This document shows, piece after piece, positions 9,282 to 28,799 of a stretch of 35,929 nucleotides of DNA. The stretch's first letter is position 1; each line of letters starts with the position of its first letter. The stretch is from Xylographa opegraphella (taxonomy: Eukaryota). The stretch covers positions 62,001-97,929 of the forward strand of contig JALDZX010000068.1 in assembly GCA_022813865.1 (NCBI GenBank), given 5' to 3'. Under the pieces are notes generated by a model. The model was not told the DNA's origin. It searched no databases and saw only the letters and a list, made by a program, of their open reading frames with translations. The translations under genes and the position numbers were made by a program.

Positions 9282-11959
9282 ATGTCGTACCTTCAGAATA
9301 CGACCCTGCTTCAAAGTACGCGAGGCCATAGCACATTAGACTCGAAGTCCACAGACCAAGTGCCTTTAGGGAAGCAGACGAATGGCTCAAAATCTCTGCG
9401 CTCTCGCGGCTCGATCGCCGCGTTGGTCAACCTTGTTCGCAATCCGGTGGCCACGGTTGGAGAAGCCGTAGAAAACTGGTATGGCGGTTTGACAGCGGAG
9501 GAGCGCGCCCGCAAGCAGCAACTTGAGGATACGACACATATCTTCTATCTGCGAATGCGCAGCGTAAGGATTGCTTCTATACGCCGTACATCATTGTCTT
9601 GCATTGCTGACTCAATTTCCTGACGCAGGCAACCAACTACGATGACTGGAAAGCGGCCGCGACCAAGCTCGATGAGCTTGAGGGCAATAACGCCTGGAAG
9701 ACGGTCGTTGAATCCGCAGAATATGACGATCGACTCGTTGAAGCGCGTCTGAGACAGCTGGACGAAGCACGGATCAGCTGCGATGTTGGGCGAATGCTTT
9801 TCCTCATTCGGACGGCGCTCGCTCGTGGACTCGGAAACATGGGCAATCTTCACCTCTACAAGCACACTCACATTGGTACGAAAGATCTCATTGAACGATA
9901 TATTACATCTGCCCTAGAGACGCTGGATGCTTTGCTCGATATATCCGCCAAGGCCAAGTGCGACCGACTGGAAACGAAGCACATACTTGAGCAGGTCCTG
10001 TCTTCAAGACAGGCTTTTGGGCGAAGCGCTTTGCTGCTTTCAGGCGGTGCTACGTTTGGGATGAATCACATCGGTGTATTGAAGGCACTCTGGGAGACGC
10101 ATCTACTTCCCCGGATTATCTCCGGCGCATCGGCCGGTAGTATTGTATGTGCAGTACTTTGTACTCGCACAGATGAAGAGATGCCCGACCTCCTCGCGGG
10201 CTTCTGCCACGGTGATCTTGCCGTGTTCGAAGAAGAGGGCAACGAAGACGGATTAATGCAGAAGATCGTACGCTTCTTAAAGTTTGGTGCATTATTCGAC
10301 ATTTCGCATCTTACTAGAGTGATGAAAGACATGTTGGGTGATCTTACCTTTCAGGAGGGCTATAATCGTACTAGAAGGATATTGAACATTTGTGTCTCGA
10401 GCGCAAGTCTGTACGAATTACCGAGATTGCTTAACTATGTTACCGCTCCAAATGTCCTGATTTGGTCTGCAGTGTAAGTGAGGGTGCGACTCTATGGCGG
10501 CCTACCCTAACGAGGAAACAGTGCTGCCTCATGTTCTGTTCCGCTACTATTTTCGGCCGCTTCGCTTTTGGCGAAGGATCCGAGGACGGGTGAAGCGGTA
10601 CCATGGAACCCTTCACCTCAACAATGGATCGATGGGTCGGTTGACAATGATTTGCCGATGACCCGTTTGGCAGAGATGTTTAATGTCAACCATTTCATTG
10701 TCTCCCAAGTTAACCCACATGTTGTACCATTTCTTATCAAGGAGGAAGACACGATCGCGAGAGAAGCTCAGCAATCGACCGCAAGCCTTGCTGCAGCTCC
10801 AACATGGGTCCACAGTATGACACATTTTGCTAAAGGTGAGGCTCTGCATCGGATGCACATGATGTCAGAGATGGGTATATTTCCAAATACCTTGACCAAG
10901 GCTGTCTCGGTCTTAAGCCAGAAGTACTCAGGAGATATCACTATCTTTCCAGAGATCTCGTATGCCGATTTCCCTCGAATGTTATCTAATCCGACACCCG
11001 AGTTCATGGAACGGGCAATGCTTTGCGGACAAAGGGCAACATGGCCAAAGCTGAGTAGGATAAGAAACCATTGTGCGATTGAGCTAGCATTAGACGATGC
11101 TGTCCAAAAGCTGCGAACGCGAGTCGTGTTCAGTACAAGTCAAGCCGACTTAAGACTTAGGGCCTATGTGCGATCAAACTCGGACTCCAAGAGTCGTCGC
11201 AGTCTCGATGATGCCCGTGGTGGGAGAAGTCGACGGAAAATGTCGCAAAACAGTGAGATAGCTGCAGAAGTTCGAAGCTTCAGAGATGGCAGAACAAAAG
11301 TGCAGAACGCTGCTTCGAGCAACAATGTCCTTGGTCCCAACACGCACCCTTCAGATCTCAATAGAGCGAAATACACAATCCCTGACCGAAGTGCACTTCA
11401 GCGCTTATCAACTGAACTAAAGTCTTCTCCATTTTTCCAACCATACCCTACCTACGATATCGTATCTTCCGGAGCGGAAACCTCGAACCTTTCAACCTCG
11501 GACTATGACACTGATGTGTCATCTCCAATGGACTCTCCTTACTCATCAACATCGCCTGCTATTCCTGAGCTTTGGCCGGATTCACGTCAGCTTTTTCCGC
11601 ACGCAACGCAACCAAATACCCCCGCCGGTGATCTGTATCGATCTGCAATATGGTCTCCTCTGGCGAATGCTTCGCCTTGTGTATCAGGCCACAGTAGGAG
11701 TCCATCGGCATCGAAGAAGTCGCTGTCAATGACACCTGGCGATGAGGTAGCTACAAGCACCATACCTAGCTCACCCGAACAGAAGTACAAGCGCTTATTT
11801 CACAACGCCAAATCGCGTCTGAAAGCTATTTCGCCTGTTCAGCCGTCTCACCCGACCCCTGCACCTAACACAGGCGTAAAGAGATTCAGCAGCATAGGGT
11901 TGGAAATCGATATGTCTGGCACAAGAGGTATGGTACTCCGGAAGAAAAGCAGAGATTGA
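9282..11959 (+). CDS. TGL4: Patatin-like triacylglycerol lipase (Tgl4/Tgl5/SDP1 family). Exons 9282-9563, 9629-10473, 10522-11959
   Basis: LLLSGGATFG oxyanion motif, GASAG catalytic Ser, WIDGSV catalytic Asp and FNVNHFIVSQVNPH. Introns 9564-9628 (GTAAGG...CAG) and 10474-10521 (GTAAGT...CTAAC...CAG) restore the frame. Confidence 0.93.
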
Positions 11960-27379: not shown

Positions 27380-27805
27380 TCACGCCGGCCCTCCCATTTG
27401 CCCTTCGCCCTCCCCATCCCCCTTAACCCCCCCCTCCCCCCACCCCCCCAGATTAACTACCACCGCCTCCCCCCCCGCCCTCACAATCGCCCACACGACC
27501 TCCTCCTCACCATTATTCACCTCCTGATGCTCCTCCCAGGCAGGGATGAGCGCGAAATCGCCCGGCGCCATCGGCTGCGTCTTGCGGCCGCCGTCCGTGA
27601 CGATGGCGCCGTGCCCGCTGCGCGCGTACACGACCGTGTCCTGCGCGCCGTGGTGGTGCACCGCCGAGGCGCTGTGCGGCGCCGCCGTCATCAGCGACGC
27701 GTTGAGCTGCGTCGAGGCCCGGTGCAGGGCCGCGGCACGCGTCATGCCTGGCGATTGGGCCGTTTGCGCTGAGAGCGCGGTGGAGGGCGTGTGGGTTAGG
27801 GGCAT
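27380..27805 (-). CDS. RmlC-like cupin domain protein (~141 aa)
   Basis: Cupin motif 1 SAVHHHGAQDTVVYARSG and motif 2 PGDFALIPAWEEHQEVN. The ATG at 27805 is preferred over the upstream ATG, which falls inside the tRNA. Confidence 0.88.
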   Translation of the reverse strand: MPLTHTPSTALSAQTAQSPGMTRAAALHRASTQLNASLMTAAPHSASAVHHHGAQDTVVYARSGHGAIVTDGGRKTQPMAPGDFALIPAWEEHQEVNNGEEEVVWAIVRAGGEAVVVNLGGWGEGGVKGDGEGEGQMGGPA

Positions 27806-27985
27806 TATTGGGTTTGGTTTTTGAAAGGGGGGGGTGGGGAGGAGGGAGATGGTGGAGATGGTGGAGGATGACGTGGTGAAATGGGGTAGTTCTGGGGGGA
27901 GAAAGAAATGTAAGGTTATATACGATAATAAGATACTGTGTTTTTGTGAATGCCAGTTCCGCTGGCGCAATGGTAGCGCGCTAGA

Positions 27986-28032
27986 GTGTGTATATCAAGT
28001 CTACAATATCAACCTCAGCTAATGTTAAATAG
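27986..28032 (+). other. 47-nt spliceosomal-type intron inside the tRNA, between positions 31 and 32
   Basis: 5' GTGTGT, branch-like GCTAAT at 28018-28023 and 3' TAG at 28030-28032. Exact GT-AG excision restores the anticodon arm. Confidence 0.8.
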
Positions 28033-28038
28033 CTTCTA

Positions 28039-28045
28039 CCCCGAT
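28039..28045 (+). other. 7-nt canonical tRNA intron at position 37/38 (CCCCGAT)
   Basis: Starts one base 3' of anticodon TCT. Its antepenultimate G can form the anticodon-intron pair with C32. Confidence 0.75.
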
Positions 28046-28086
28046 ATCTAGAGGCTGTGGGTTCGAGTCCCACGCGGAATGCTCAC

Positions 28087-28093
28087 TTTTTTT
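28087..28093 (+). terminator. RNA polymerase III terminator (T7 run)
   Basis: TTTTTTT begins 5 nt after the tRNA discriminator, followed by several more T runs up to ~28122. Confidence 0.8.
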
Positions 28094-28169
28094 GCCACTT
28101 TTTGGCATCACTTTTTGGTTTTTGTTCAGGAATACCGGAACTAGTATTCAGCTTACGAATCTATGCATT

Positions 28170-28799
28170 TTAGCCCTCTTCAGCATGATCGAATGCCTTT
28201 GAAGACGCTTTATCAAGATCATAACGCCAATGATTAGGGTCAAGTTTCCTACCTATAGTAGAAATTGTTAGCATATCCACATGTTGAGCTTCGTGTAACC
28301 TGCCGCCGAGTTCTTCTGTCTCAGTCACATCAACAATCGAATTACTTTTCTTGGAAGCCTGCAGTCGTTTCAACCCTCTACCGCCACTAGTCTGTCGTAA
28401 AGGCTTTCTTTTGGTTATCGATAATATAGGCGTAGTTTCCTCTTCCTCATATTCGACGGCAGGCTTACCAAGTAGGTTAGTATAGTGTACTGAGTCGACC
28501 TCAGAGAGATCGTTGAGCTTTGGTTCCTCCTCTTTCTTTTTACCAGCCCTTACCCATTTGTCGTGCAGTTTAGCCACTTCCGCCTTTATCCATAAACCTT
28601 GTAGCCCTTTTAATCCCTAAAGATCTCACCATTCCGATACTTTCATATACCACTCGATCAAGGCGTGGCGGTTCTCGCACTTTGATACTTAATACAGCAT
28701 CCTTTTTACTAATTTCCGCATCTCCTTTTCATATAAGAACACGGTTTCACCTATAATAGAAAACATAGTCCCTCTCTTGCTTCTTCCCTTATTTTTTTG
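28170..28799 (-). pseudogene. Decayed ORF with in-frame stops, unknown family
   Basis: The frame of ORF 28170-28577 continues upstream as MFSIIGETVFLYEKEMRKLVKRMLY*VSKCENRHALIEWYMKVSEW*DL*GLKGLQGLWIKAE, with three stops (TAA, TGA, TAG) in AT-rich sequence. Confidence 0.5.

Follow-up and report, generated by a model that had tools for sequence, protein, structure and literature searches.

The window, by which we mean the whole 35,929-nt (35.9-kb) stretch of Xylographa opegraphella DNA that was analysed, carries a tRNA-Arg(UCU) gene whose cloverleaf is interrupted by two inserts, one of 47 nt and one of 7 nt (Table 1). The species is a lichen fungus, and its nearest relatives by the comparison that matched it to the window are X. 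soralifera, X. bjoerkii, X. trunciseda, and Lambiella insularis. The arms of the cloverleaf can be read directly from the letters: the acceptor strands GTTCCGC (27956-62) and GCGGAAT (28074-80) pair with each other, the D arm is GCGC/GCGC, the anticodon stem brings together CTAGA (27981-85) on the 5' side and TCTAG (28047-51) on the 3' side, and the T arm is GTGGG-TTCGAGT-CCCAC (28057-73). The A-box-like element and the B-box were named by comparison with the Pol III consensus, and both of them, together with the T-run terminator, were found as given in an original prediction made for this locus.

Table 1. Features of the tRNA-Arg(UCU) locus, in positions of the window.
Feature	Position	Strand	Basis
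Whole tRNA-Arg(UCU) gene, acceptor start to discriminator G, with two inserts	27956..28081	+	RF00005, own covariance model, ARAGORN
Exon 1, tRNA positions 1-31: acceptor 5' strand, D arm, 5' anticodon stem CTAGA	27956..27985	+	reading of the letters; ARAGORN cloverleaf
A-box-like internal promoter element TGGCGCAATGG	27963..27973	+	reading of the letters
Candidate intron of spliceosomal type (GT...AG), 47 nt, between tRNA positions 31 and 32	27986..28032	+	homology-best placement, splice signals unused
5' splice-site-like hexamer GTGTGT (G at +1, T at +2, G at +5, T at +6)	27986..27991	+	reading of the letters
Branch-site-like GCTAAT; candidate branch A at 28022, 10 nt from there to the intron end	28018..28023	+	reading of the letters
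3' splice-site-like TAG	28030..28032	+	reading of the letters
Exon 2, positions 32-37, CT-TCT-A; anticodon TCT at 28035-28037	28033..28038	+	reading of the letters; ARAGORN
Canonical-position tRNA intron ccccgat, 7 nt, at 37/38	28039..28045	+	ARAGORN after removal of the 47-nt insert
Exon 3, positions 38-73: A38, TCTAG stem, variable loop AGGCT, T arm, acceptor 3' strand, discriminator G	28046..28081	+	reading of the letters, ARAGORN, own model
B-box GGTTCGAGTCC	28060..28070	+	reading of the letters
Run of seven T, Pol III terminator-like, 6 nt past the gene	28087..28093	+	first run of at least 5 T counted from the gene start

A covariance model of our own, built from 15 intact tRNA-Arg genes, matches the gene at 68.8 bits (E 1.9e-17), and this is its sole match in the window. 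The tRNA model of Rfam, RF00005, gives 50.1 bits (E 5.2e-8) in a permissive run, the gathering score being 29. When both inserts are deleted in silico, ARAGORN reports a clean 73-nt tRNA-Arg(tct) in which 21/21 pairs are standard, and the anticodon loop is then that of a tRNA-Arg(UCU), with 7 nt, T33, TCT, and a purine at 37. The form spliced in silico is identical to the intact Arg-TCT gene of locus L058 at 65 of 71 positions. The identity that had been predicted for the gene is borne out by both models and by ARAGORN after the removals. Run without introns, ARAGORN found no tRNA at the locus, and Rfam in gathering mode did not detect the gene. Two minus-strand genes flank the tRNA gene, which lies antisense to both of them and so belongs to no mRNA of its own strand.

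Two inserts in one anticodon arm

Eukaryotic tRNA introns are normally cut by the tRNA endonuclease at 37/38. The 7-nt insert is like such canonical introns in its position, in its length (they span 6-133 nt according to the relevant part of a review) and in its pairing, its third-last base G being able to pair with C32. The 47-nt insert differs from them: it lies at 31/32, beyond the reach of the endonuclease ruler, and it has GT...AG signals. The original prediction had described the longer insert as interrupting an otherwise intact cloverleaf, and this has to be amended, because ccccgat also interrupts it, between CTTCTA and A38. The proposal that taking out GT...AG restores CTAGA-CT-TCT-A holds for the junction itself, where CTTCTA is joined to the stem, but 7 nt still precede A38. 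Deletion of 27986-28032 in silico leads ARAGORN to tRNA-Arg(tct), as had been anticipated, with a 7-nt intron at 37/38. To judge from the letters, the anticodon arm of this gene needs two removals and not one, of 47 nt and of 7 nt.

The borders of the 47-nt insert do not depend on its splice signals. A signal-blind parse of the locus has 84 formal solutions that yield 34 different mature forms, among which we chose by homology to Arg-TCT genes, and the parse closest to an intact tRNA (65/71) is exactly 27986-28032, which is GT...AG. The same interval between CTAGA and C32 had been predicted, with GTGTGT, GCTAAT and the terminal TAG, all of which are present where they were placed. The insert has the sequence features of a U2-type intron, namely a GTNNGT-like 5' hexamer, G at +5, a CTRAY box and a YAG end, although the T at +4 of the hexamer departs from the letter preferred there. 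To estimate chance, 502,026 intervals whose lengths match were taken from the window: 0.37% of them are GT...AG, and a fraction of 5.8e-5 combines this with G at +5 and with a branch-like box that lies 8-16 nt before the end. The likeness to the mRNA introns of the window, which had been claimed for both size and signals, is seen in length: 47 nt, compared with 65 nt in the only mRNA intron backed by protein alignment (9564-9628) and 48-91 nt in the others, which come from strict ORF joining and are candidates only. In these candidate mRNA introns, the spacing of the branch box is 11-19 nt.

The 47-nt insert has no stable fold (MFE 0.0). In a simple fixed-register test for a bulge-helix-bulge, the central helix of the insert has 2/4 pairs, so it lacks that motif as well as the canonical position. 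We rejected a self-splicing group I or II intron, given an insert of 47 nt with no predicted structure and, for E values up to 1, no hit to an Rfam intron family in the window. An introner-like or other multi-copy element that generates introns would show many nearly identical copies in a genome, often stably folded; no second copy of the insert was found in the 35.9-kb window or in 122 metagenome loci.

Inserts of the same kind in other tRNA-Arg genes

A metagenome scan was seeded with the window gene's own D arm, and at least 123 hits in at least 122 loci were examined. The original prediction had proposed looking in this and related genomes for other tRNAs with inserts of the GT..CTRAY..AG type, and the metagenome contigs do hold such inserts. 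At least seven further complete tRNA-Arg genes of fungal type with non-canonical inserts were found on metagenome contigs (L008, L019, L032, L074, L083, L102, and L113), and they hold at least eight further inserts, at 26/27, at 27/28, at 33/34, at 32/33, in the variable loop, in the 5' T stem, and twice in the 3' T stem. One of these genes, L083, carries three introns.

All nine inserts, that of the window included, were placed without the use of splice signals. In the window and the matches listed, 9/9 begin with GT and have G at +5, and 9/9 contain the branch box YTRAB (a loosened CTRAY, that is, YTRA followed by C, T or G), which in one case is CTGAG. The distance after the branch A is 10-14 nt in all nine, again among the window and the matches listed. 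In this same set, the 3' end is YAG in eight of the nine and AAG in the second insert of L083, and the lengths run from 47 to 61 nt. The GT...AG placement is unique for 7/9 inserts, and for the other two it is one among 4-5 equivalent slides. As a control we took 30 canonical-position introns from the same gene set, where none starts with GT, one ends with AG, and none does both. Eight inserts were tested for a bulge-helix-bulge, the second of L083 being left out, and none has one (0-2/4 pairs in the central helix).

We also looked at runs of T. No run of 5 or more T occurs inside any of the nine inserts, and the first such run always lies past the 3' end of the gene, about 2-11 nt beyond it in 7/8 genes and 43 nt beyond it in L074, an arrangement that would be compatible with transcription by Pol III. 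A TTTT is present in the intron of L032 and in that of L113, and might act as a weak terminator for Pol III.

Some of the introns are related to one another. Those of L032 and L113 share a common site, 61/62, and are identical at 34 of 61 positions, while those of L074 and L083 are recognisably related (38/55 identical). In a different organism of the same study, X2, one contig of 649 nt has matches to both the D arm and the T arm, which are 77 nt apart there compared with 65 in the window. After GGTTCGAGTC, the letters of this contig continue with GTAAGT, at the position that the introns of L032 and L113 occupy, and the contig of this relative probably holds an insert of the same kind. Matches of X2 cover 8 of 30 window bins and those of X3 cover 4 of 30, and the match to 27954-27985 in X2 comes from a record that stops five letters later. 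In the DNA run X1, which is probably the source of the window and so not independent of it, 1 of 98,362 records matched 27600-28500, and neither a twin nor an intron-less copy of the gene was seen; we give this no weight, since a set of contigs cannot establish absence.

Fourteen "one deletion" cases were left out of the insert count: L056, L062, L070, L087, L105, and L116 because they are of bacterial type and their inserts are very long, L014, L107, and L114 as having canonical introns plus one stem mismatch, L039, L085, L119, and L122 because weak acceptor pairing gave spurious solutions, and L002 as having a 13-nt T-loop insertion with no GT...AG. L109, which is interrupted by the end of its contig, is not counted. 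For 32 of the 124 hits no parse was obtained; judged by eye and by model score, these are non-tRNA matches, truncated genes, or tRNAs with the T loop off pattern. The open frames that flank the intron-bearing loci look non-coding.

Alternative readings of the inserts

An intron or intron-like mobile element could have inactivated the tRNA-Arg(UCU) gene, with other copies supplying the tRNA. Other intact Arg-UCU genes may exist, in which case the window copy could be dispensable, and the relevant part of a review states that insertions in one of many synonymous eukaryotic tRNA genes usually read as pseudogenes; the failure of the standard finders at this locus would fit such a dead copy as well. 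Its exons, however, are flawless. In comparison with the closest intact relative among the matches listed, the window gene shows only three two-sided compensatory changes, and 0/29 unpaired positions differ; both promoter boxes and the terminator are intact. The same is seen in the other genes, since in all eight spliced in silico (the window and the seven) 21/21 pairs are formed. Between L032 and L113 there are three compensatory and two one-sided changes with no pair broken, and between L074 and L083 there is one compensatory change, so that in both couples pairing was kept while the introns diverged. These substitutions show that the exons are under tRNA-type constraint, including between genes that have a common intron site. 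The splice signals themselves (GT, G at +5, branch box, AG) are kept in 9/9 inserts, which argues against decay, as decay would not preserve them. We consider an inactivated gene unlikely.

A working gene might instead lose its 47-nt insert to the tRNA splicing endonuclease, or to some other pair of nuclease and ligase, and not to the spliceosome. The 7-nt intron of the same gene already requires the endonuclease, and tRNA genes that carry multiple introns away from the canonical site are known from Cyanidioschyzon merolae and from the nucleomorphs of cryptophytes and chlorarachniophytes, where introns lie in the D arm, the T arm, and the anticodon stem, with up to three per gene, and are excised (relevant part of a review). 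Those introns are like the inserts described here in being ectopic and multiple, with three also in L083. The resemblance does not extend to the signals: the C. merolae introns need a bulge-helix-bulge, the nucleomorph ones named in that review are 3-24 nt long, and the pathway is that of the endonuclease, whereas our inserts are 47-61 nt long, lack the motif in the eight tested, and bear spliceosomal signals. An endonuclease has no need of GT, G at +5, a branch box, or AG, yet 9/9 inserts have them and 0/30 canonical introns are GT...AG. Removal by such enzymes therefore seems to us improbable.

A third reading, a tRNA-His(GUG) gene with a single intron of 54 nt at the canonical site, is what ARAGORN reports for the native sequence when introns are allowed, but we give it hardly any credence, since its loop G-T-GTG-T-A puts a purine at position 32 and a pyrimidine at position 37, its body scores and aligns as tRNA-Arg as described above, the exact CTTCTA along with the GT...AG borders and a branch box would become coincidences (about 6e-5 per interval), and the seven other genes with inserts outside the anticodon loop would go unexplained.

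The predicted reading, in which an apparently spliceosomal intron sits where the endonuclease does not cut, is thus supported by the signals of all nine inserts, by the control introns, by the lack of a bulge-helix-bulge, by the recurrence of such inserts, and by the constraint on the exons.

Two proposed splicing steps on one pre-tRNA

We think it rather probable that the locus is a functional tRNA-Arg(UCU) gene belonging to a lichen-forming ascomycete, and one that would need two mechanistically different splicing steps. RNA polymerase III would transcribe the gene, directed by the A and B boxes inside it and stopping at the seven-T run. The 47-nt insert would behave as an ordinary U2-type intron, GUGUGU ... 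GCUAAU ... UAG, which the spliceosome would excise as a lariat, as it does the mRNA-type introns of U6 snRNA genes. This would leave a pre-tRNA with a normal anticodon arm and the 7-nt intron at 37/38, from which the tRNA splicing endonuclease and ligase would remove the latter, so that the spliceosomal step would come first and the endonuclease step second. The sequence features of the gene suggest that two splicing machines act on one tRNA. Pol III transcripts lack the coupling to polymerase II that normally recruits the spliceosome, and the quick folding and processing of pre-tRNAs could compete with it.

Beyond this one gene, we incline slightly towards a broader view, in which the spliceosome of some lichen-forming and allied ascomycetes would routinely process Pol III pre-tRNAs, with up to three introns of two kinds per gene that are inherited and kept functional, and in which at least some of these genes would supply an essential tRNA. 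The 47-nt insert may have arrived by reverse splicing into an abundant RNA followed by copying back into DNA.

Spliceosomal introns in rRNA genes of lichen-forming and allied ascomycetes were reportedly described by Bhattacharya et al. in 2000. These rRNA introns come from the same broad fungal lineage as the window, and they too are short, of the GT...AG type, and located in a gene that polymerase II does not transcribe, the difference being that the rRNA host is a Pol I transcript and the host here a Pol III tRNA. The introns in U6, from fission yeast and certain other fungi, and in U1, U2, and U5 of Rhodotorula hasegawae, are also like that of the window in being short, with GT...AG and a branch box, and in lying in a gene for a small structured non-coding RNA; U6 is moreover transcribed by Pol III and has an internal promoter, as the window tRNA would be and would have. 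The snRNA hosts are parts of the spliceosome, so that closeness to its active site explains their gain of introns, but a tRNA is not such a part, and the tRNA host here bears an endonuclease-type intron in addition. For the introns of snRNA genes, gain by reverse splicing has been proposed in the part of a 2018 review that treats them. The non-coding hosts of spliceosomal introns named in that part of the review are U6, U2, U5, U1, and rRNA, the last in ascomycetes, and tRNA is absent from this list. Our searches of the literature found no published account of spliceosomal introns in tRNA genes, in line with the original prediction, which knew of none.

In textbooks, and in the portion of a recent paper that bears on the matter, spliceosomal and tRNA introns are treated as separate, unrelated systems that act on different transcripts. 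If the reading with two splicing steps is true, this would be the first case in which both systems meet on one molecule, and the non-coding hosts of spliceosomal introns, so far snRNAs and rRNA, would be extended to the most abundant product of Pol III. It would also bear on the open question of intron gain, for which the relevant part of the 2018 review contrasts an "abundance" and a "proximity" idea: because tRNAs are abundant and structured and are distant from the spliceosome's active site, they would allow the one to be tested against the other. Should these genes supply an essential tRNA, translation would be tied directly to the activity of the spliceosome. Given that ARAGORN by default and Rfam in gathering mode miss the gene, annotations of such fungi may lack real tRNA genes, and if standard finders miss the whole class, the tRNA sets of these genomes would be undercounted. 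At about 130 nt, the gene would also offer a natural and compact substrate with which to ask whether polymerase II is needed for splicing.

Anatomy of the tRNA gene and its two inserts

The halves of the anticodon stem of the tRNA-Arg(UCU) gene in the window are 61 bases apart, compared with seven in a tRNA. The original prediction described a single 47-nt insert in an otherwise intact cloverleaf. Its boundaries, the GTGTGT start, the GCTAAT and the terminal TAG were all found as claimed, but the gene carries two inserts, the second at the canonical 37/38 position. Removing the first does make CTAGA abut CT-TCT-A, but seven bases remain between A37 and A38. The expected return of an Arg gene on deleting the 47-nt insert in silico was borne out by ARAGORN, which then called tRNA-Arg(tct) and put a 7-nt intron at 37/38; deleting both inserts gave a clean tRNA-Arg(tct) of 73 nt. 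Eukaryotic pre-tRNAs usually pair the third-last intron base with position 32, and this base in the 7-nt intron, a G, is able to pair with C32. The length is also compatible with the canonical class, because the available text of a review gives 6-133 nt for canonical eukaryotic introns. Folding predicted no structure for the 47-nt insert (MFE 0.0), and no second copy of it was present in the window or in the metagenome loci listed.

Features of the window gene, and sites of the non-canonical inserts in the window gene and in seven metagenome tRNA genes (L numbers)
Feature	Locus	Position	Strand	Basis
tRNA gene	window	27956-28081	+	direct reading; Rfam RF00005; own covariance model
Acceptor stem, seven pairs	window	27956-62 with 28074-80	+	direct reading
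D arm GCGC/GCGC	window		+	direct reading
Anticodon stem, five pairs	window	CTAGA 27981-85, TCTAG 28047-51	+	direct reading
47-nt insert, GTGTGT start, GCTAAT (28018-23), TAG end	window	27986-28032	+	direct reading
7-nt insert ccccgat, between A37 and A38	window	28039-45	+	direct reading; ARAGORN
Variable loop AGGCT	window		+	direct reading
T arm GTGGG-TTCGAGT-CCCAC	window		+	direct reading
Discriminator G	window		+	direct reading
Seven-T run	window	28087-93	+	direct reading
Insert site	L074	26/27
Insert sites	L083	27/28 and 33/34
Insert site	window	31/32
Insert site	L019	32/33
Insert site	L008	variable loop
Insert site	L102	T stem, 5' strand
Insert site	L032, L113	61/62, T stem 3' strand

Across the entire window, ARAGORN run without introns made zero tRNA calls and Rfam at gathering thresholds gave zero matches. 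With permissive filters the single Rfam match in the window was this gene, at 50.1 bits (gathering score 29), in an alignment that skips 59 bases in the anticodon loop. The score is 21 bits above the gathering score, and the default gathering run, which uses fast filters, did not report the gene; it is the Rfam filters, not the score thresholds, that conceal interrupted tRNA genes. Our own tRNA-Arg covariance model, trained on 15 intact genes, also had this gene as its sole match in the window (68.8 bits, E 1.9e-17).

The spacer of ~380 nt that holds the gene is bounded by two minus-strand features, a cupin gene at its start (Pfam Cupin_2, E 2.2e-11) and the end of a second open frame, at 28170. 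Being antisense to both neighbors, it lies outside any same-strand mRNA. Directly upstream, between the tRNA gene and the cupin start, is a purine-rich, G-rich tract (27827-27905) with G runs and GGAG/GGTGG repeats. A 230-residue query from a patatin-lipase exon in the window matches a Xylographa opegraphella protein with 100% identity at 98% coverage, and its next matches are in other Xylographa species and Lambiella insularis (96-88%), so the window belongs to a lichen-forming ascomycete.

Placement of the inserts and their recurrence

To place the inserts we used a parser that is blind to splice signals. Its only rules are paired stems, T33, a purine at position 37 and a T loop of the form TTCRANY, with a canonical intron allowed, and it tests every removal of one 12-160 nt interval. 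At the window locus this gave 84 formal solutions with 34 distinct mature forms, so tRNA geometry is not enough to choose among them. When each mature form was compared with the intact tRNAs of the comparison set, splice signals again being ignored, the top solution by identity was exactly 27986-28032 plus the 7-nt intron, with 65/71 identity to an Arg-TCT gene. By chance, GT...AG occurs in 0.37% of 502,026 length-matched window intervals; requiring in addition G at +5 plus a branch-like box that lies 8-16 nt before the end lowers the fraction to 5.8e-5.

With the 17-base D arm as query, a scan of public metagenome contigs gave at least 122 loci, with 123 matches in them, which together with the window locus made 124 inputs to the parser. 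Of these 124, 70 parsed as intact genes (23 with a canonical intron), 32 were unparsable (non-tRNA matches, truncated genes or genes with a different T loop) and 22 required one deletion. Eight of these 22 are real interrupted genes, those whose insert sites are tabulated; the other 14 were rejected, being either bacterial-type genes whose inserts are very long or artefacts of strict pairing rules. L083 required a second non-canonical deletion, for a total of at least nine such inserts in eight genes among the matches listed. A search for other tRNAs with GT...branch...AG inserts had been suggested for this and related genomes; in metagenome contigs it yielded seven genes with eight inserts among those matches.

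In its homology-best placement every insert begins with GT and ends with AG (9/9; in L008 and L102 via one of 4-5 equivalent slides), and all nine have G at +5. The 5' hexamers are GTGTGT, GTAAGT (three), GTGAGT (two), GTACGT, GTATGG and GTAAGC, and the branch-like boxes are CTAAT (two), CTAAC (two), CTGAC (three), CTGAG and TTGAC, with the branch A 10-14 nt from the insert end in 9/9. Lengths are 47-61 nt. The canonical 37/38 introns of the same gene set (n=30, 7-54 nt) include none that start with GT, one that ends in AG and none that do both, and in 2/30 a branch-like box is suitably spaced from the end. These features suggest that spliceosome-type tRNA inserts are a recurring class, beyond one gene.

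We also matched to the window, at 80% likeness, the contigs of three DNA runs of one study: X1, probably the source of the window, and X2 and X3, each from another organism. One 649-nt contig of X2 matches the D arm (27962-80) and 28046-69, with 77 letters between the D-arm match and the 28046 match (A38), compared with 65 in the window. Directly past GGTTCGAGTC, midway through the T arm, come unlike letters beginning GTAAGT, the same site and start as the L032 and L113 introns. The contig is an independent, weak hint that such genes exist in this fungal lineage. The X2 gene may hold two or three introns.

Exon constraint, alternatives and a possible route of processing

With the inserts removed in silico, 21/21 standard pairs form in 8/8 genes. 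Compared with L058, its closest intact relative among the matches listed, the window gene has both bases changed in three stem pairs and no change at unpaired positions (0/29). L032 and L113 share an intron site; between their exons there are three two-sided and two one-sided changes, none of which breaks a pair or touches an unpaired position, and their introns are just 34/61 identical. The intron of L074 and the first intron of L083 are recognizably related (38/55 identical) and lie one base apart, which may reflect intron sliding, and the two genes show a single compensatory T-stem change. The pattern in these comparisons is that of intron-bearing tRNA genes on which purifying selection acts. 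The main rival explanation is a dead gene copy, and in the available text of a 2014 tRNA-intron review other insertions into tRNA genes are regarded as pseudogenes. We consider a dead copy unlikely, since the exon pattern is hard to reconcile with it.

Removal of the insert by the tRNA splicing endonuclease or another nuclease is improbable and fits the data poorly. That review's available text places non-canonical eukaryotic tRNA introns only in nucleomorphs and Cyanidioschyzon merolae. Nucleomorph introns are 3-24 nt, unlike the inserts here, and those of C. merolae form a bulge-helix-bulge, whereas in the endonuclease register the central four-pair helix would have only 0-2 pairs in the eight inserts tested (the first of L083 and those of the other seven genes). 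ARAGORN read the native locus as tRNA-His(gtg), its intron being 54 nt long; this reading is very improbable and fits the data poorly, with G at 32 and T at 37 in its loop.

The observation behind the original prediction is real, and a putative spliceosomal intron, amended by the second, canonical intron, is its best interpretation. The prediction knew of no described case in tRNA; a full-text literature search covering few subscription journals likewise found no description of a spliceosomal intron in a tRNA gene. The available text of a 2018 U6 review lists as non-coding hosts the snRNA genes for U6, U2, U5 and U1 and the rRNA genes of ascomycetes, tRNA not being among them, and calls the determinants of such insertions unclear. 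The available text of a 2025 paper places spliceosomal introns in polymerase II transcripts and describes the three types of nuclear intron as unrelated.

No run of five or more Ts lies inside any of the nine inserts, and in 8/8 genes the first such run is past the gene 3' end, about 2-11 nt away in seven and 43 nt downstream in L074. A T run acts as the polymerase III terminator, and its absence before the gene 3' end is what transcription through the intron by this polymerase requires. Judging from the anatomy and the precedent of U6 snRNA genes, the most likely route would have four steps. Polymerase III would synthesize a precursor of ~130 nt; U1 and U2 snRNPs would bind GUGUGU and GCUAAU, and the spliceosome would ligate A31 to C32; in the product a normal anticodon stem would close a loop of 14 nt still holding the 7-nt intron; and this intron would then be processed by the tRNA endonuclease and ligase.

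Other tRNA genes among the metagenome matches

L083:293-490 (+) encodes tRNA-Arg(TCG) and holds three inserts: two GT...AG ones, 55 nt long at 27/28 and 57 nt long at 33/34, and a canonical intron of 14 nt. A covariance-model scan of all loci listed found no more interrupted eukaryote-type genes except L109, which is cut by the contig end. This tRNA-Arg(TCT) gene (L109:8-91, -) has a 9 to 10-nt canonical intron and breaks off inside its T loop, just past GGGTTC; the letters that follow begin GTTTAT, and the contig stops before the remainder of the gene. GGC-anticodon tRNA genes in L002:67-150 (+) and L118 (cut) have a 13-nt T-loop insertion without GT...AG that resembles a local duplication. 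Eight bacterial-type genes with the same D-arm 17-mer (L056, L062, L070, L086, L087, L100, L105 and L116) have an anticodon loop beginning CTGT, a GTT-like anticodon and long anticodon-loop inserts with common sequence blocks, which look like putative group I introns. Second tRNA genes, with anticodons read by eye, lie beside the Arg gene at L008:703-789 (-), Gly(GCC)-like with a canonical-position intron, and at L011:19-89 (+), intact and Arg(ACG)-like.
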